From assembly GCA_002771995.1 (NCBI GenBank), contig PCRK01000167.1:1-35198 (forward strand): a stretch of 35,198 nucleotides of DNA, written 5' to 3'. How positions within the stretch are numbered: the first letter of the stretch is position 1; each line of letters starts with the position of its first letter. A model generated the notes under the pieces. It had not been told where the DNA came from. It made no database searches and worked only from the letters and a program-made list of their open reading frames with translations. Shown here piece after piece: positions 7,839 to 32,942 of this stretch. This DNA comes from Candidatus Sherwoodlollariibacterium unditelluris (GTDB lineage Bacteria > Omnitrophota > Gorgyraeia > Gygaellales > Profunditerraquicolaceae). Made by a program: the position numbers and the translations under genes.

Positions 7839-8120
7839 GTTTCAAGTATCGGTTTGTGTAACTTTTATCTTCCATTTCCTGCGTTTTCTTGCTATACTTT
7901 TTCTGGCTACCGTCAGGCCCCGTATAATCCCGTAGGGATTTTTACGGGCCAGGCCCCGCATACTACGGGGCAGGCAGGGATTTTTATCGTTGAGTTTTTC
8001 GCCACAATACTTGTCGCCACAAGACATGGCGACCTGTCGATTATTGTGGCAGGGTGAAGCCGCCTTCTTTGCGGCGGAAATCTGCGGAATCATAGAGAAA
8101 GAGCCTTAGAGAAGTCTCTC

Positions 8121-8393
8121 ATGAAAAAGTTTGCGCATGTCTATTATTCCGGCAGGGTTCAGGGGATAGGATTCAGGTTTACTGCTCAGCGTATCGCCGA
8201 AGAATTAGGTGTTTGCGGCTGGGTTAAGAATCTTGACGATGGCAGGGTTGAAATATTAGCTCAGGCAGGCGAAGACAAATTAAAAGATTTCCTTGCGCAG
8301 ATTAATAGCGCCTTGAGTAGCTATATTCAAGATATACAAACCGACTGGGGGCCTGCTACGGGCGAGTTCCGCAACTTCGGAGTAAGGTTCTAA
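8121..8393 (+). CDS. acyP: Acylphosphatase
   Basis: 90 aa with acylphosphatase signatures VQGIGFRFTAQ and GWVKNLDDGRVE. Its stop abuts the ligA ATG. Confidence 0.85.
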   Translation: MKKFAHVYYSGRVQGIGFRFTAQRIAEELGVCGWVKNLDDGRVEILAQAGEDKLKDFLAQINSALSSYIQDIQTDWGPATGEFRNFGVRF

Positions 8394-11640: not shown

Positions 11641-11741
11641 ATATTCAAGGAAATAAAAAGATGAATATGCCAAAGGTGCGGGATTCAAGTAGTTTAAAAG
11701 GCATTAGATTTAAAAAGATGAATATTCTAGAAGGTGCGGGA
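11625..11741 (+). repeat. Junction palindrome with a duplicated 3' arm (MBL hydrolase | xerD)
   Basis: cccgcaccttt (11626-11636, just before stop 11638-11640) pairs with aaaggtgcggg (11672-11682). The inner hairpin is atattca (11641-11647) / tgaatat (11662-11668). A second 3' arm, aaaaagatgaatattctagaaggtgcggg (11712-11740), lies 57 nt after the first copy (11655-11682) and abuts ATG 11741. Confidence 0.75.
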
Positions 11742-12628
11742 TGAAAGAGCTAATTGATACATTTCTTAATTATCTTTCGGTTGAGCGCGGGTTATCCAAT
11801 AATACGATTATCGCTTACCGTGAAGATTTAAATAAGTATTTAGATTTTATGGAAAAGAACCATATTGAAGTTTTATCCAAAATCGCCAAAGATAATATTA
11901 CAGATTTTATGCTTAGCCAAAGAGATGATGGAATTGCCCCTAATTCCGTAGCCAGAAGATTGGCGGCGATAAGGATGTTCCACAGGTTTCTAGCCCGCGA
12001 GAGAATCCTGAAAACTGATCCCAGCACTTTAATAGACTCTCCTAAATTATGGAAGAGGGTCCCTGATACCCTTACGGTAAATGAGGTCGAGGCTTTAATC
12101 GTCCAGCCGGATGCGCGGGATAGGCAAGGGATAAGAGACCGGGCAATATTAGAGACGCTTTATGCTACAGGTATGCGTGTATCCGAGGCAGTGAACTTAA
12201 AAAAAGATAATGTAAATTTAGATATCGGTTTCTTGCGTTGTGTTGGCAAGGGGAATAAAGAGAGGATTATACCCTTAGGCAAGAAGGCGATAGTCAGCAT
12301 AACCAGGTATTTTAAGGCCTCAAGGCCTAAGTTTCTTAAAGATAAGCAATCGGAGTTTCTCTTTGTTAGCCGTTTTGGGAAAAAAATTTCACGGCAATCT
12401 TTCTGGAAGCTCATTAAGAAATATGCAAAACTGGCGCGTATTAAGAAACCGATTAAGCCGCATACCTTTAGGCATTCTTTTGCCACGCATCTTTTAGAGC
12501 GTGGAGCGGATTTGCGTTCCGTCCAAGAGATGCTTGGGCATGCGGATATCTCTACAACTCAGATTTATACGCATATCAATAAAGATAGATTGAAAAGTGT
12601 TCATAAGCAGTTTCATCCAAGGCCGTAA
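11741..12628 (+). CDS. xerD: Tyrosine site-specific recombinase XerD (XerC/XerD family)
   Basis: N-terminal SAM-like domain (FLNYLSVERGLSNNTIIAYREDL). Catalytic region RDRAILETLYATGMRVSE ... HTFRHSFATHLLERGADLRSVQEMLGHADISTTQIYTH (R-H-R-Y residues). Confidence 0.8.
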   Translation: MKELIDTFLNYLSVERGLSNNTIIAYREDLNKYLDFMEKNHIEVLSKIAKDNITDFMLSQRDDGIAPNSVARRLAAIRMFHRFLARERILKTDPSTLIDSPKLWKRVPDTLTVNEVEALIVQPDARDRQGIRDRAILETLYATGMRVSEAVNLKKDNVNLDIGFLRCVGKGNKERIIPLGKKAIVSITRYFKASRPKFLKDKQSEFLFVSRFGKKISRQSFWKLIKKYAKLARIKKPIKPHTFRHSFATHLLERGADLRSVQEMLGHADISTTQIYTHINKDRLKSVHKQFHPRP

Positions 12629-27514: not shown

Positions 27515-28288
27515 ATGAAAAGATATATTCTCTCTTTGTTTATTTTATTCTTTTGTCTCTCTAACGTAATGGCCGAAGATGCGTGGAATACTCTTAAGTC
27601 CACGCACTTCGTTGTCTTTTATAAAAACGCCCCGGAGGATTTTGTAAAGTTGGTTACGGATAAGGCAGAAGTTTATTATGACCAAATAGCTGAAGGATTA
27701 GGCTTTATGCGTTTTGATTTCTGGCTTTGGGATAATCGGGCTAAGATTTACATCTATGACGATGCTAAAATTTACTCTGCTAGAACAGGACAGCCGGCAT
27801 GGTCTCTAGGTATAGCTATCCCGGGAGTTAAGGCAATAGAAACCTTCCCTTACGCAAATAATTTTATAGAAACAGTGCTTCCTCACGAAATGGGGCATAT
27901 TATTTTTAGGGAATTTGTAGGTTTTAATAATTCCGGTATACCTCTATGGTTGGATGAAGGAGTAGCTTCTCATCAGGAAAAGGCAAAGTATTCCCAAGTG
28001 GGCATATTTATCCGTAAGGCGATGGTCGAGGGAAATTTTATGGATTTAAAGAAGTTGGCTTCCTTCTATAGCGTTGTCAATCTTGACCCCAAACTTGTAA
28101 ATATATTTTATGCTGAATCATTCAGCCTGATCGACTTCTTAATTAGGGAATTTGGCCGGGATAACTTTGTGCTTTTTTGTCAGAACCTGAGGGATAAAAG
28201 GAACTTAGAAAGAGCTATGGCGTCAGTTTATCCTTTCGGTAATATAAATGAATTAGACCAGGCGTGGCAGAAGTATTTAAAGAAATGA
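27515..28288 (+). CDS. Secreted HExxH...E zinc metallopeptidase-like protein (peptidase-MA / gluzincin-like) embedded in the dcw cluster
   Basis: Signal peptide MKRYILSLFILFFCLSNVMA. Zinc motif LPHEMGHIIF with a downstream PLWLDEGVA that offers a candidate third ligand Glu. Its ATG is 1 nt after the murG stop, and its stop overlaps the murC ATG (ATGA). Confidence 0.7.
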   Translation: MKRYILSLFILFFCLSNVMAEDAWNTLKSTHFVVFYKNAPEDFVKLVTDKAEVYYDQIAEGLGFMRFDFWLWDNRAKIYIYDDAKIYSARTGQPAWSLGIAIPGVKAIETFPYANNFIETVLPHEMGHIIFREFVGFNNSGIPLWLDEGVASHQEKAKYSQVGIFIRKAMVEGNFMDLKKLASFYSVVNLDPKLVNIFYAESFSLIDFLIREFGRDNFVLFCQNLRDKRNLERAMASVYPFGNINELDQAWQKYLKK

Positions 28289-29646
28289 CTAAACATTATC
28301 ATCTAATAGGCATCGGCGGTATAGGTATGAGCGGGATTGCGCAGTTGCTTTTGCGCTTAGGCTATAAGGTCAGTGGTTCAGACCTAAAAGAAAATAAGAA
28401 TACGGTAAAACTTAAGAATCTAGGCGCAGAGATTTTTATCGGCCATAACTCGGGTAATATTAAGGGAGTGGATAAGGTAGTCTATTCCTCGGCGATAAAA
28501 GAAGATAATCCTGAGATTAAAGAAGCAAAGAGGTTAAAAATACCTTTAATTATGCGGGCTCAGGCATTAGCGCAGCTTATGCAGGCCAAGTCGGTAATTA
28601 CTGTTGCGGGAAGCCATGGGAAAACCACAGTTACGTCTTTAGTTTCATGCCTTTTGCTTGAGGCCGGGTTTTCTCCTACTGTGGCCATAGGCGGAATCTT
28701 AAAAAATATAGGTACTAATGCTTGCATGGGCAGTGGGGAATTTTTTGTTGCCGAGGCGGATGAATCAGACGGATCTTTTCTTTATTATAAGCCGAAATTT
28801 TCCATAATTACTAATATAGATTATGAGCATCTTAATTACTATAAGAGTTTCGAGAAAGAAGTTGAGGCATTCCGTAAGTTTTTGGGAGCCACGGATAAAG
28901 ATGGTTGTGCCTTTTGCTGCAGCGATGATTTAAATCTTAAAGGTATTCTTAAAGAATATAAAAATAAATATATTCTATTTGGGTTAAAACCGGGCGCGGA
29001 TATCTACCCTCGGAATATAAGGTTGGACGGCCTCTCTAGCGAATTTGACTGTTTTTTTAAGAATAAATTTGTGGCGAGGTTTAGTCTAAGCCTTGGCGGG
29101 GAGCATAATATTTCTAACGCCCTTTCGGTAATTGCTTTGGGTTTAGAATTGGGGATAGCGCTTAAGTTTATTAAGTCCGCGCTTCTAGGATATAAAGGCG
29201 TCGGCAGGCGCTTAGAGATAAAATTTAAGGATGAAAGATATATGGTCATTGATGATTACGCGCATCATCCTACCCAGATTAAGGCGACACTAAAGGCAAT
29301 AACCAACTTAAAGGCTAAGAGGGTCGTTGTCATATTTCAACCTCATCGTTTTACGCGTATGCAATTGCTCTTTGAGGAATTCACTAAGAGTTTTGACAAC
29401 GTAGGCTGCCTTATAATTACTGACATATACCCTGCGAGTGAATCGCCTATTCCAGGGGTAAATAGTTTTAATCTTTATGAGAAAATAAAAGAGCGTACTC
29501 AAGATAAGAAAGTTTATTTTATTCCTAAGGAAGGGATTATAAACAAAGTTTTAGAAATAATTAGGCCTGGGGATTTGATTATTACCCTCGGGGCAGGAGA
29601 TATTGCGAGGTTAAGCGATGAGTTGGCAGAAAGAATTAAGGGTTAA
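28285..29646 (+). CDS. murC: UDP-MurNAc:L-alanine ligase
   Basis: N-terminus MTKHYHLIGIGGIGMSGIA and P-loop AGSHGKTT. ATG 28285 overlaps the upstream stop. The ORF-track GTG 28264 would add 7 aa. Confidence 0.9.
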   Translation: MTKHYHLIGIGGIGMSGIAQLLLRLGYKVSGSDLKENKNTVKLKNLGAEIFIGHNSGNIKGVDKVVYSSAIKEDNPEIKEAKRLKIPLIMRAQALAQLMQAKSVITVAGSHGKTTVTSLVSCLLLEAGFSPTVAIGGILKNIGTNACMGSGEFFVAEADESDGSFLYYKPKFSIITNIDYEHLNYYKSFEKEVEAFRKFLGATDKDGCAFCCSDDLNLKGILKEYKNKYILFGLKPGADIYPRNIRLDGLSSEFDCFFKNKFVARFSLSLGGEHNISNALSVIALGLELGIALKFIKSALLGYKGVGRRLEIKFKDERYMVIDDYAHHPTQIKATLKAITNLKAKRVVVIFQPHRFTRMQLLFEEFTKSFDNVGCLIITDIYPASESPIPGVNSFNLYEKIKERTQDKKVYFIPKEGIINKVLEIIRPGDLIITLGAGDIARLSDELAERIKG

Positions 29647-30499
29647 AACTAATCAGCCGTTAAAGGCCAAAACCACCCTTAAGATCGGAGGGCCGGCTGA
29701 ATTTTTTAGCGAACCTAAAGGCCTTGCGGAATTAAAACTTCTTATTAATAAGGCCAAAGAAAATAACCTGCCTGTTTCTGTTATTGGGGCAGGCAGTAAT
29801 TTGCTGATTAGCGGCCGAGGAGTTAAAGGTCTTTTAATAAAATTAAACTCCCCTTATTTTAAAAAAATTTCATTAAAAGATAATTATATTGAGGCAGGTA
29901 GCGGCGCTATGCTGCTTAAGCTTATTCAATTCGCCAAAAGGAGGCCTTTGAGCGGAATTGAATTCTTGGCGGGTATACCCGGAACACTAGGCGGGGCATT
30001 AGCGATGAATGCCGGTTGTTGGGGTAAGAATATCGGGGATTTGGTTAAGGAAGTAAAGGTTATGGATTATAAAGGTAGTGTAAGGAAATTAACCAAGCGG
30101 GAAATAAAGTTTAGTTACCGTAAATCCGGCCTGGGAAATTATATTATATTAAGCGCGGTATTAAAACTTAAGAAAGAAAGTGCTAAGGTAATCAACCGGA
30201 ATATAAAAGATTATATTTTGAAGCGGCGCAATAGCCAAGATTTGACTTTTCCCAATGCCGGGTGTATCTTTAAGAATCCCGCTTCTTTATCCCGAGGCGC
30301 GGGTGAGTTGATAGAGCTTTGTGGGTTAAAAGGCAGGAGAATCGGGGGTGCGTCTATTTCTATTAAACACGCCAATTTTATCCTAAACAAAGGAAATGCT
30401 AATGCTGAAGATGTGCTAAGGCTTATGCGTTTAGTAAGGGAAAGGGTAAAGAAGAAATTTAAGGTAACTTTAGAACCGGAAATAAAAATATGGCAATAA
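29618..30499 (+). CDS. murB: UDP-N-acetylenolpyruvoylglucosamine reductase
   Basis: FAD-binding motifs TLKIGGPAEFF and GAGSNLL, and catalytic-region GCIFKNP. The last 16 codons lie in the left 67-bp direct repeat. Confidence 0.9.
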   Translation: MSWQKELRVKTNQPLKAKTTLKIGGPAEFFSEPKGLAELKLLINKAKENNLPVSVIGAGSNLLISGRGVKGLLIKLNSPYFKKISLKDNYIEAGSGAMLLKLIQFAKRRPLSGIEFLAGIPGTLGGALAMNAGCWGKNIGDLVKEVKVMDYKGSVRKLTKREIKFSYRKSGLGNYIILSAVLKLKKESAKVINRNIKDYILKRRNSQDLTFPNAGCIFKNPASLSRGAGELIELCGLKGRRIGGASISIKHANFILNKGNANAEDVLRLMRLVRERVKKKFKVTLEPEIKIWQ

Positions 30500-30516
30500 A
30501 CTCGCGAACTTGTGAA
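30450..30516 (+). repeat. Left 67-bp direct repeat (murB 3' end + orphaned ddl-type start)
   Basis: Identical to 30930-30996 except c30494 versus g30974. The offset is exactly 480 bp. Confidence 0.95.
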
Positions 30517-30929
30517 TTTAGAGCACGATATATTTTGTTCTTCGGGATATTGCTCGCTTACTGAAATCTCTCACCGTTCTTTTTAATGAATCTGTCGTGT
30601 TTTTCGCTTAAGTCGCTTTTGCCCTTACGGGCACAGCAAAGGTCTCTCGTATTTTTGGCGGCTGCAGAACTCGGCCGTCCCGCTCTAGCGGAGACGGCCT
30701 CAAACAGCTTCGCCGTCCCGAGATTGCCCCGACGATATGTCGGGGCCTCGGGATTCCCAAAAATACTCGAGCTGCTTTGCCTAAAAGCTCCATTCGCTCG
30801 AAATCACGCCAGATTCATTTAGCGAAGCAGCTTTATCTTATAAATGACACTGGTAAGGTTCGAGCGAATGTCGTACTTTTCGCCTCTGCGAAAAGCACGG
30901 CCTGAGCGAGAAACTTGGCAGGGTCATTT
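30517..30929. other. GC-rich, highly self-complementary non-coding insert (candidate structured RNA, or relic of an integrative or MITE-like element)
   Basis: It is bounded by the 67-bp direct repeats and visibly more GC-rich than its flanks. The only ORFs are mutually overlapping Arg/Ala/Pro/Leu-rich ones on both strands. Many nested complementary segments are listed in the findings. Confidence 0.5.
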
Positions 30930-30996
30930 AGAAGAAATTTAAGGTAACTTTAGAACCGGAAATAAAAATATGGGAATAAACTCGCGAACTTGTGAA
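30930..30996 (+). repeat. Right 67-bp direct repeat (pseudo murB 3' end + functional ddl start)
   Basis: See 30450-30516. It contains ATG 30970, which ddl uses. Confidence 0.95.
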
Positions 30997-31941
30997 CTCG
31001 CGAACTCGCGAACTAACTTTGGCAGGATTGGCGTTTTAATGGGCGGCCCTTCAAGCGAAAAGAAGATTTCGCTTAAGTCAGGCCATGCTGTCTTAAATAT
31101 TTTAAAAGAGTCAGGGCAAAAAGTTGTCCCCATAATTATTAAGACAGATAAGGTTAAAAACAATGTCCGTTTGCTTAAGTCCTCGAATATAGATTGCGCC
31201 TTTATTGCTTTGCACGGCTCATTTGGCGAGGACGGCGGGATTCAGAAGATTTTAGAGTCGCTCAAGGTTCCTTACACTGGTTCGGGGGTTAGAGCAAGTA
31301 AGTTAGCCATGGATAAGGTTGCCTCGCGCAATATTTTTAAAAAGCACGGTTTAAATGTGCCGCCCTCTAAAGTAATTAGCGAGAATTCTTATAAAATTGG
31401 CAATATCGACAAATTTGGTTTGCCGTTAGTAGTTAAACCGGCTACGCAGGGCTCAAGTATTGGGCTTTCTATTGTGGATAGTTATAAAAATATCCCTAAG
31501 GCAATAAACCTGGCTTTTAAATTTGACAAGAGGATAATTATTGAAGAATACATTAGAGGCAGGGAATTGACAGTGGGGATACTCAAAGAAAAGGCGCTTC
31601 CGGTAATTGAGATTATCCCTAAGCATTTTTTCTTTGATTATCAGGCTAAATATAAACAGGGCTTAACAGATTATATTGTTCCGGCTAAGCTGTCGTTTAA
31701 GGCCGCTCTACGGATAAAGAAAGCAGCTTTGTCAGCGCATAAGCTCTTAGGCTGCTTTGGTTGTTCTAGGGTGGATATTATATTAGATGACGCGGGTAAT
31801 CCTTTTATCCTTGAGGTAAACACAATACCCGGATTTACCTCAACTAGCCTCTTGCCTAAAGCAGCGAAAAGCGCGGGGATAGATTTTAATCATTTGTGCC
31901 TGGAATTAATCAAGTTGGCATATGGGCCTCGCACCTTCTAA
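30970..31941 (+). CDS. ddl: D-alanine--D-alanine ligase
   Basis: GVLMGGPSSEKKISLKSG, HGSFGEDGGIQ, ATP-grasp VKPATQGSSIG, LEVNTIPG. The N-terminal 17 aa (MGINSRTCELANSRTNF) are encoded by the right direct repeat plus an 8-nt tandem array. No alternative in-frame start exists before the conserved core. Confidence 0.9.
   Translation: MGINSRTCELANSRTNFGRIGVLMGGPSSEKKISLKSGHAVLNILKESGQKVVPIIIKTDKVKNNVRLLKSSNIDCAFIALHGSFGEDGGIQKILESLKVPYTGSGVRASKLAMDKVASRNIFKKHGLNVPPSKVISENSYKIGNIDKFGLPLVVKPATQGSSIGLSIVDSYKNIPKAINLAFKFDKRIIIEEYIRGRELTVGILKEKALPVIEIIPKHFFFDYQAKYKQGLTDYIVPAKLSFKAALRIKKAALSAHKLLGCFGCSRVDIILDDAGNPFILEVNTIPGFTSTSLLPKAAKSAGIDFNHLCLELIKLAYGPRTF
30981..31017 (+). repeat. 8-nt-period tandem array (GAACTNNN x4) in the ddl 5' end
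   Basis: GAACT occurs at 30986, 30994, 31002 and 31010 (cgaacttgtgaactcgcgaactcgcgaacta). It encodes ...RTCELANSRT. Confidence 0.85.
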
Positions 31942-32003: not shown

Positions 32004-32783
32004 AGAAAACGCAAGTTTGATTTTTTGGTTAAGCCGTTGTTTTTAAGTTTAATAATTCTTCTTGTCTCGGCTTTTATTATAGGTTCGATTTGGGAGGCCC
32101 TAACTACTTCGGATTATTTTAAGGTCAATGATATTATCAGCAAAGATATGTTAAGCGTCGATCTTTCGTATCTAAGGGGAAGGAATATATTCACCCTTAA
32201 TTTACCCGGCGAATCAGCGACGATTATAAAAGTTTGCCCGGACTGCCTAAGGGTAAGATTGGCCAGGGTTTTTCCTGACCGCGTATTCGTGGAATTCGTA
32301 AGGCGTAAGCCCGTAGCCTCAGTAAAGCTTTATCGTTATTTTTCCGTGGACCAAGACGGGGTATTTTTCTCTAGTTCTTTAGGGCCGCAGGATTCAGGCC
32401 TGCCGTTGATTATAGGATTAGAAACGAGGATATTTGGGATAAAGCCGGGAAAGAGGTGTGATGCCAAAGAGCTGGTTTTGGCTTTAGATATTATTAAAGA
32501 GGTAAAGAAAACCCGCCTATTGAGAGATTTTAAGATACAGAAGATTGAAGTGGCTGGAGCGAACGACATAACAATATCTATACCTCTTATCCCTAAATCT
32601 TTTAGTTATTCTAACGGTCAGGCTGCTTTGAAACAAGAATTTCTTGAGGTAAAGATATCTCAGGGTAATATAGCAGAAAAGATTGCGGTTATGGCCGGTT
32701 TAATAAATCAGGAAAGGCAGAATCTTAGCAATATTAAATACATAGATTTAAGGTTTAAGGAGCCGGTAATAAAGTTTAAGTGA
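32001..32783 (+). CDS. ftsQ: Cell division protein FtsQ (POTRA domain)
   Basis: Short cytoplasmic tail, one TM (LFLSLIILLVSAFIIGSIW), then POTRA-like and FtsQ-type beta domains. It sits between ddl and ftsA. The GTG start is embedded in a junction repeat. Confidence 0.8.
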   Translation: MRKRKFDFLVKPLFLSLIILLVSAFIIGSIWEALTTSDYFKVNDIISKDMLSVDLSYLRGRNIFTLNLPGESATIIKVCPDCLRVRLARVFPDRVFVEFVRRKPVASVKLYRYFSVDQDGVFFSSSLGPQDSGLPLIIGLETRIFGIKPGKRCDAKELVLALDIIKEVKKTRLLRDFKIQKIEVAGANDITISIPLIPKSFSYSNGQAALKQEFLEVKISQGNIAEKIAVMAGLINQERQNLSNIKYIDLRFKEPVIKFK

Positions 32784-32883
32784 GGCCACGGCTTATGGAG
32801 CGCTTAGCGAACATAAGCCGTTTGGCCGAACTTACCCCCGCTGTTTCGTTTTGCTTTCGCAAAGCGAAACAAAACGACGGGGG
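32784..32883 (+). other. Two long GC-rich hairpins in the ftsQ-ftsA spacer
   Basis: The first is ggccacggcttatg (32784-32797) / cataagccgtttggcc (32812-32827), 14 bp with a 2-nt bulge. The second spans 32835-32883, about 20 bp, imperfect, with outer ccccc/ggggg and a gcttt-cgc-aaagc tip. Confidence 0.7.
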
Positions 32884-32942
32884 TTAATTCGCACAATAGC
32901 TTACTCACACTTTTAGTGTTCGTAAGTTATGGGCTCATTAAG

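Follow-up and report, generated by a model that had tools for sequence, protein, structure and literature searches.

How did a block of hairpin-rich, non-coding DNA come to lie between murB and ddl in a member of the Omnitrophota, in such a manner that the same 67 bp are present on either side of it and both genes remain complete? This question is raised by a stretch of 35,198 nt from Candidatus Sherwoodlollariibacterium unditelluris (contig PCRK01000167.1), referred to in its entirety as the window, in which a 413-nt insert separates the two genes. The data presented here make it likely that the insert is a non-autonomous, hairpin-forming cluster of Omnitrophota repeats, recently inserted at an overlapping murB–ddl junction with duplication of 67 bp of the target. 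The features of the junction, in window coordinates, are as follows.

29618–30499, + strand: murB (UDP-N-acetylmuramate dehydrogenase), an open reading frame (ORF) with Pfam domains FAD_binding_4 and MurB_C; complete, its 3′ end within repeat copy 1.
30450–30516, + strand: direct repeat copy 1, containing the murB 3′ end and stop codon, an orphan ddl start (ATGGCAATAA) and the derived base C30494.
30490–30564, + strand: putative decoy ORF of 24 codons, running from the orphan ddl start of copy 1 into the insert and ending at TGA 30562–30564.
30517–30929, no strand: the insert, in which interspersed palindromic repeats form a mosaic cluster (413 nt; homology searches and folding).
30930–30996, + strand: direct repeat copy 2, containing a relic of the murB 3′ end, the functional ddl ribosome-binding region and start (ATGGGAATAA) and the ancestral base G30974.
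30970–31941, + strand: ddl (D-alanine–D-alanine ligase), an ORF with Pfam domains Dala_Dala_lig_N/C; complete, its start within repeat copy 2.
30979–31014, + strand: an array of 4.5 tandem units of 8 nt (AACTCGCG) within the 5′ end of ddl, identified by tandem-repeat finding.

A preliminary description of this DNA, made from the sequence alone, had reported two 67-bp repeats with one mismatch and an offset of 480 bp, intact genes on both sides, and a right repeat boundary inside an 8-nt tandem array. These observations were borne out. A repeat search of the window returned exactly two direct copies of the 67-nt sequence, with starts 480 nt apart and 66 of 67 bases matching, the single difference being C30494 versus G30974; a chance origin of so long a near-exact repeat within 35 kb is not plausible. 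The ORFs and their Pfam domains are complete, murB through copy 1 and ddl from copy 2, and the homologs of the MurB protein carry that name and derive from Candidatus Omnitrophota. The right edge of the duplication is situated between units 2 and 3 of the array, whose units, in order AACTCGCG AACTTGTG AACTCGCG AACTCGCG AACTAAC, encode an N-terminal extension of Ddl, and an AA dinucleotide is found at both edges of the duplication. The array is present in the window and in its relative L017, and is not found in L018, a relative with 73% MurB identity; it could be the product of slippage or represent the footprints of repeated insertion and excision.

The same arrangement was observed in at least nine independent metagenome assemblies, located in ENA, JGI and Logan by exact-protein look-ups with MurB and Ddl. 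The 1.1 kb from 30200 to 31300 is 100% identical in all 10 of the contigs that cross it, which derive from several ENA and JGI samples, and a one-off misassembly is therefore excluded.

It is apparent from the relatives that the two genes formerly overlapped. The murB/ddl overlap is 10 nt in L017 (GCA_036171635.1; 85% MurB identity) and in L018/L019 (73%), where the overlap motif is ATGGGAATAA (within ...AAAATATGGGAATAA...) or ATGGGAATGA. The empty site that had been predicted for relatives was thus found, and the possibility of an old, fixed intergenic spacer is refuted by the overlapping genes. L020 (70% MurB identity) has its own extra sequence of approximately 90 nt at the ddl start. All of the relatives, as well as contig L014, have G at the variant position; G is thus ancestral, and C30494, which changes the last MurB residue from Glu to Gln, is a later mutation in copy 1. 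Since the ancestral base is G and the repeats carry the host's own sequence, there is no need to suppose, as the preliminary description had offered as an option, that the element brought a surrogate copy of the target from elsewhere. Its other option, entry into an ancestrally overlapping junction with duplication of the target, is supported by the relatives, by L014 and by the dispersed-repeat make-up of the insert.

Contig L014 (JGI 3300004239), from the same population, contains 16 nt of the murB tail, one repeat copy with G, and ddl, with no insert. Its start lies exactly 60 nt before the C/G variant, a position that fits a k = 61 de Bruijn branch, provided that some reads connect the murB tail with a repeat of the G type. 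An empty allele may therefore coexist with the filled allele in the population, and the block would be a recent insertion with a duplicated target, probably still polymorphic.

The insert was analysed further in terms of its composition. Its G+C content is 49%, compared with 41% for the window, and its predicted fold (RNA parameters, relative to shuffled sequences) has an energy of –173 kcal/mol on the + strand (z = –8.5) and –165 kcal/mol on the – strand (z = –7.2). Only short ORFs are present, and their frame is not kept across copies. The earlier characterization of the insert as G+C-rich, self-complementary and non-coding, with no transposase or integrase, thus holds, in that no conserved ORF is present; its treatment as a single element does not, as the insert is composed, mosaic-like, of three repeat pieces that belong to two families, designated F1 and F3.

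30532–30577, + strand: left arm of an F3 element (consensus ATTTYGC..CGGGATATTGCTCGCTCACGAAAATTTTCGCCGT), which breaks off after GCCGT and adjoins F1.
30585–30819, – strand: full-length F1 element of 235 nt, whose ends AATGAATCTG...CAGATTCATT pair; a branched hairpin (nhmmer E = 4e-76).
30820–30842, no strand: a 23-nt spacer between the full F1 and the mini-F1, with no homology besides TTATA beside the mini-F1.
30843–30929, + strand: mini-F1 of 87 nt, internally deleted and inverted relative to the full F1.

The mini-F1 retains both F1 termini and both GAGCGA arms, with a short hairpin replacing the centre. It matches the reverse complement of F1 in two parts, the 3′ end at 30832–30873 and the 5′ end at 30888–30929 (blastn and nhmmer), and its predicted DNA fold is –23.8 kcal/mol (z = –5.8) on the + strand versus –17.3 kcal/mol on the – strand. 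Comparable minis that retain their ends were found in L040, L044, L093 and L085. F3 is a second hairpin family, full-length members of which are present in L070 (173–378) and L025 (2323–2512); the same truncated F3 arm, with the same truncation point, is situated directly upstream of F1 in L086 and L046. A third family, F2 (approximately 180 nt), directly follows F1 in at least 20 loci and is absent from the window.

The expectation that further copies of the insert would be revealed by sequence searching was realized in part: homologous pieces are present in other contigs, and no second copy was detected within the window by blastn or nhmmer. A near-identical sequence that could have served as donor for the 413-bp mosaic was not among the matches listed, in which identity reached 82% for F1 and 94–96% for the best-matching pieces (L070, L048). 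No match to the insert was obtained by blastn among 72,556 plasmids and 50,697 phages. A curated RNA family (Rfam 15, which includes group I/II introns, HEARO/omega RNAs, 6S and ribozymes) was rejected, as there was no match in the window at the gathering threshold and only chance-level, miRNA-type matches in the insert at E ≤ 10; nothing sensible was found at E ≤ 1 in five other loci with F1, F2 or F3. No tRNA or tmRNA was detected in the window, and neither the insert nor the sequence beside it gave a promoter or terminator signal.

The distribution of F1 was determined from homologs that were obtained by back-translation of a spurious 78-aa ORF at the centre of the insert, used only as a search device. 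Homologs of 30585–30820 with 68–82% identity were observed, among the matches listed, in nine metagenome contigs, in nine different housekeeping contexts. A genome search, for which a degenerate 31-nt pattern was derived from the most conserved F1 block, revealed 72 loci in 39 genome assemblies, nearly all of them Omnitrophota, with at least 10 matches in one genome; a few of the genomes are labelled Planctomycetales and one Atribacterota, labels that were taken unchecked. An nhmmer search with F1 gave 92 hits. Many of the F1 matches are located at contig ends, as expected of repeats that break assemblies. The elements reside in spacers between housekeeping genes (e.g. argG|argH, hemB, truA, cobO, recJ), often abutting a stop codon, and show no orientation bias, 25 being in the same direction as the flanking genes and 18 in the opposite direction.

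Representatives of the 149 protein clusters encoded within 3.5 kb of F1 copies were compared with Pfam. No recurrent transposase, reverse transcriptase or integrase was present among the 25 commonest of the 251 matched families; the same is true of Y1_Tnp, although no search was aimed at genes for RAYT (the transposase associated with repetitive extragenic palindromic sequences) or IS200. The neighbours that were scanned individually proved to be housekeeping genes, and F1 was not found in the viral contigs of IMG/VR. When 63 copies were searched for target duplications (boundary offsets, k = 2–5), the best candidate was TA/TA, with 14 copies versus 10.1 expected; TTAA was not above chance, and longer matches flanking F1 copies follow the null distribution. 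The 78-aa ORF that spans F1 was rejected as a gene, since core lengths fall in all three residues modulo 3 and only four weak 'proteins' were found among 5.8 billion; inspection of the alignment revealed no conserved type I toxin or other small ORF. No paper linking the Omnitrophota to interspersed repeats, repetitive extragenic palindromes (REPs) or miniature inverted-repeat transposable elements (MITEs) was found in the literature, and F1, F2, F3 and the smaller palindromes appear to be an undescribed repeat set of this phylum.

One such smaller palindrome is present at the same junction in a relative. L017:3892–3933 is a 42-nt G+C-rich palindrome doublet, in frame at the 5′ end of ddl, where the repeat of the window ends; it comprises two copies of a small GC palindrome, CTGCCGGCAGG / CCTGCCGGACGGGCAGGCAGG, and is situated between units 2 and 3 of the 8-nt array. 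Because L017 has a different palindrome at the same position, the murB–ddl junction is an insertion hot spot. The same palindrome, as CCCTGCCTGCCGGCAGGCAGGG, interrupts the F2 element of L046, and from its sequence it looks like a fourth, REP-sized repeat family.

At the ends of F1 only AATG...CATT is constant; these termini pair, and the next 3–10 positions covary between copies (e.g. AATGAATCTG/CAGATTCATT versus AATGCCTCTG/CAGAGGCATT versus AATCTCCCTG/CAGGGAGATT). RNAalifold analysis of 49 copies yielded 34 pairs, 23 of them with compensatory changes. When the fold of the window copy was projected on the 49 copies, 85% of cells could pair, versus 74% for shuffled sequences and 35–47% when the partners were slid, and 49 of the 83 pairs change on both sides. 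Three variable hairpins have been swapped wholesale between F1 subfamilies, and are still hairpins. Wobble pairs constitute approximately 1–3% of F1 pairs and are equally rare on both strands.

The two strands are nevertheless not equivalent in the predicted folds. One strand folds approximately 13 kcal/mol better in 62 of 63 copies (DNA parameters were likewise examined), an asymmetry that is explained by TCGCTC blocks that are invariant on both arms. On the complementary strand these blocks, 5′-GAGCGAAU / 5′-CUGAGCGA, are predicted to be capable of pairing into a helix that includes two tandem G·A pairs, and several of the variable-hairpin subfamilies contain an analogous CCGAGG/CCGAGG. Thus F1 seems, on the basis of this modelling, to act as one folded strand, which for the full copy would be the minus strand of the window; the active form is no less likely to be single-stranded DNA than RNA.

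Some copies are shared between species. F1 is found right after the Amidohydro_2 stop codon and upstream of PNP_UDP_1 in eight species (L025, L038, L078, L082, L083, L089, L090, L095), and downstream of argS-recJ in seven (L037, L049, L068, L071, L075, L086, L087), with the L071 copy in the orientation opposite to the others. At the former site, pairwise comparison of seven species gave 83% nucleotide identity for F1, versus 74–77% for the flanking genes (68% and 84% at the protein level). Either purifying selection acts on F1 or concerted evolution has homogenised its copies.

These properties raise the alternative that survives best, namely that F1, and with it the insert, is a functional structured RNA gene or a cis-acting RNA domain (e.g. 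a processing or stability element, a protein-binding RNA or a guide-like RNA) that is multicopy by chance and would uncouple or modulate the expression of murB and ddl. We consider this unlikely, although a number of the observations accord with it. Folding predictions give a highly stable structure (z about –8.5 to –10), and covariation is abundant; single-stranded blocks are invariant, and one strand has tandem G·A motifs rich in purines, which resemble many protein-binding RNA motifs; and F1 is conserved above the adjoining coding DNA at an orthologous site, with vertical retention of some copies across 7–8 species. However, the scarcity of G·U pairs on either strand is unusual for an RNA with such variable stems, and, as F1 occurs in both orientations relative to its neighbours, co-transcription would yield either polarity. 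The lack of a promoter or terminator signal in or beside the insert and of an Rfam match also argues against an RNA, as do internally deleted copies that retain the ends only, and the presence or absence of the element at a site differs between, and probably within, populations.

The repeat-insertion hypothesis accounts for the junction as follows. The block would have entered a murB–ddl junction that originally overlapped by 10 nt (ATGGGAATAA), and the same event would have copied 67 bp of the target, so that murB is completed in copy 1, and ddl has its ribosome-binding region and start codon in copy 2; C30494 would have arisen afterwards in copy 1. F1 would work as a folded single strand, with its ends paired, its hairpins covarying and its GAGCGA arms making tandem G·A pairs on one strand. 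The duplication could have been produced by widely staggered breaks in the target that were filled in after insertion, or by a template switch during replication or repair, in which an existing cluster was copied and synthesis resumed 67 nt upstream. Were an insertion within the 16 terminal codons of murB or the 9 initial codons of ddl accompanied by a short duplication, an essential gene would be lost, and only an insertion with a long duplication is therefore survivable here; selection at the essential junction would explain why so rare a type of event is observed at this locus. If insertion made the duplication, the position of the insert exactly between the two copies is automatic.

Several observations weigh against this hypothesis. 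Neither an enzyme, a donor copy nor an intermediate of insertion came to light among the matches listed, and the way in which the duplication arose is deduced rather than seen. Most F1 copies lack flanking duplications above chance, and a long duplication is not a hallmark of the family. The outer ends of the clusters in the window and in L046 share no sequence, which also argues against a transposase that recognises defined ends. The within-population empty allele depends on 16 nt at the end of one contig; the family copies are not independent, and the strand asymmetry in 62 of 63 of them is accordingly in part inherited; and the conservation and covariation of F1 are also compatible with a functional RNA.

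L046 has the only other long flanking duplication among approximately 75 clusters examined: an exact 21-nt direct repeat, TAGGCGGATTGCAATAGTTTA, is present at L046:140–160 and 757–777, around an intergenic cluster of ~596 nt that consists of an F3 arm, F1 and F2. The preliminary description had noted that no known mechanism could be named for a 67-bp duplication. Long duplications do have a precedent, in that IS1549 and IS1634 generate variable target duplications of 8–514 bp (PMC2266710); no transposase of that kind was found here, and, according to the authors of a review of the IS4 family, there was no mechanistic model for long target duplications.

A bolder form of the proposal is that F1 is a mobile, constrained single-stranded element (DNA or RNA), restricted to the Omnitrophota, that moves by nick-primed or template-primed copying and leaves long, variable duplications. 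The tandem-G·A helix and the pairing termini would then be recognised by an enzyme, and the duplications would be 67 bp here and 21 bp in L046. This is quite unlikely, and is put forward as speculation; were it true, F1 would be a bacterial counterpart of elements like short interspersed nuclear elements, or of retro/DNA-position elements that use template switching, distinct from MITEs and from REPINs (paired REPs). A new mechanism of insertion is not demonstrated by the present data.

The order of events could in principle be reversed, the 67 bp having been duplicated in tandem first, by slippage or unequal exchange, and the repeat elements inserted later between the copies. Tandem duplications of tens of bp are common, the AA dinucleotide at both edges of the repeat is in keeping with such an origin, and the junction is a hot spot, as judged from the different 42-nt palindrome of L017. 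This sequence of events is distinctly improbable, however, because the insert lies at zero offset from the boundary between the copies, for which the odds would be ~1 in 40 given a permissive interval of ~40 nt, and because an allele with a bare tandem duplication was not seen among the contigs.

A further possibility is that the repeats are the attL and attR sites of a degenerate integrative element, left when a recombinase integrated a circle with its own 67-bp copy of the junction. Integrative elements that target the 3′ ends of genes carry such a surrogate copy and leave long direct repeats, and recombination between the 67-bp copies could at present release a 480-bp circle and leave an empty site behind. 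This is very improbable: no integrase is encoded in or near the insert, the sole tyrosine recombinase being 18 kb away and of XerC/D layout; the insert consists wholly of chromosomal interspersed repeats; the repeats are 66/67 identical and represent the host's own sequence, so that a foreign surrogate is not indicated; and F1 is absent from IMG/VR, as is the insert from plasmid and phage records. Least credible of all is an assembly artefact, whether a chimeric join or a collapsed repeat, since, although several contigs end precisely at repeat edges (L015 and L016 begin at 30930), as is typical of a repeat-confused de Bruijn graph, the 10 contigs that cross both junctions without a mismatch over 1.1 kb come from differing samples, assemblers and institutes. 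A diversity-generating retroelement was also rejected as a candidate, as the single difference between the repeats is C/G, which is not adenine-specific, and no reverse transcriptase domain was detected in the 20 window ORFs scanned, the remaining large ORFs being annotated genes of the division and cell wall (dcw) cluster.

If the insertion hypothesis is correct, a number of consequences may be expected. Translational coupling of murB and ddl would be lost, and, as there is no terminator or internal promoter signal, ddl would depend on read-through across the 413 nt with their strong hairpins; the decoy ORF would be opened by the ddl start left orphaned in copy 1. Homologous recombination between the 67-bp copies, whose length suffices for it, would remove the block and recreate the empty allele. 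The locus would represent an insertion into an essential, translationally coupled junction that was tolerated through the 67-bp duplication, and would illustrate how overlapping genes become separated. More generally, these results expose a phylum-wide set of conserved, structured repeats (F1, F2, F3 and smaller palindromes) in the Omnitrophota. As F1 is conserved above its neighbouring genes and has strand-specific, non-canonical motifs, it should be a good handle for a mobilising or binding protein, and the filled and empty alleles, together with the L046 cluster, provide material on the origin of long target duplications. That these repeats break metagenome assemblies is also of practical concern for Omnitrophota genomes obtained from metagenomes.

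Other features of the window were noted. In the same dcw cluster, an overlap of ftsQ and ftsA is also split, by a 157-nt G+C-rich, hairpin-rich insert at 32781–32937 (site 32776–32942) with inverted ends TGAGGCCA.../...TGGGCTCA and TTAAG on both sides. The two genes overlap (...TTTAAGGATGCTAAATAA) in L017, L018 and L020. The new TGA stop codon of ftsQ comes from the insert, and the start of ftsA is probably ATG 32943, not GTG 32916. Matches to parts of this insert are present in L061 (71%) and at three positions in L075 (94% over 32 nt), and it thus belongs to another dispersed repeat family, with a short duplication. Several G+C-rich hairpins at 7900–8080 (e.g. GGCCCCGTA...TACGGGGC and CGCCACAAT...ATTGTGGC), in the spacer upstream of a 91-aa acylphosphatase-like ORF that ends at 8393, may be further small repeat elements. 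The tyrosine recombinase mentioned above, at 11741–12628 (295 aa; Phage_integrase and Phage_int_SAM_1), resembles XerC/XerD in size and in the layout of its domains and is probably a housekeeping gene. A Peptidase_MA_2 gene at 27515–28288, between murG and murC, is also present in L017 and not in L018 (73%) or L020 (70%), and is a lineage-specific insertion in the dcw cluster.

It was of interest to compare these repeats with known systems. Like F1, REPs, the mosaic elements built from them (BIMEs) and the REPIN–RAYT systems are extragenic, multicopy and non-coding, and REPs are mobilised by RAYT (Y1/HUH) transposases (PMC3116915, PMC3337134, 10.1101/2021.07.10.451892, PMC3733652). The resemblance extends to palindromes that act as folded single strands and to mosaic clusters in which modules of several types occur in both orientations, so that the organisation of the window insert is like that of enterobacterial BIMEs; a regular target duplication is lacking in both, most copies have no transposase beside them, and orthologous copies persist across species. 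In contrast to the 20–40-nt hairpin or simple doublet of a REP, F1 comprises 235 nt in a branched, multi-helix structure with long invariant blocks, no GTAG or CGTC tag was seen, and there are tens of copies per genome rather than hundreds.

Structured MITEs (ERIC/IRU, Correia/NEMIS, RUP and BOX; PMC3049150, PMC2759123) are similar to F1 in being non-autonomous elements of 100–250 nt with pairing termini, situated between genes or at their ends in either orientation, able to supply stop codons and accompanied by deletion derivatives that retain the ends. In those MITEs the sequence of the terminal inverted repeats is conserved, and the duplication is short and constant in length, as a rule TA. 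F1 departs from them on both counts: its termini covary, conservation is highest in its interior, and no duplication is above chance. As regards the duplications of 67 bp in the window and 21 bp in L046, the parallel is with IS1549 and IS1634, the only well-documented bacterial insertions with target duplications of tens to hundreds of bp that vary between copies (PMC2266710). Those are autonomous DDE elements of 1.5–2 kb with defined ends, whereas the insert is a mosaic with no conserved ORF and with outer ends unrelated to those of the L046 cluster.

The attC sites of integrons are 57–141 bp in length, with RYYYAAC/GTTRRRY ends and next to no internal conservation, and reside in cassette arrays beside an integrase. 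They are like F1 in that their function requires a single folded strand, of DNA in their case, the structure is conserved through covariation, and positions that are not Watson–Crick paired mark the active strand; their ends, size, cassette-array setting and integrase context do not apply to F1. Taken together, these comparisons identify F1 as a large, branched, strand-specific interspersed repeat, with a lifestyle like that of REPs, REPINs and MITEs.

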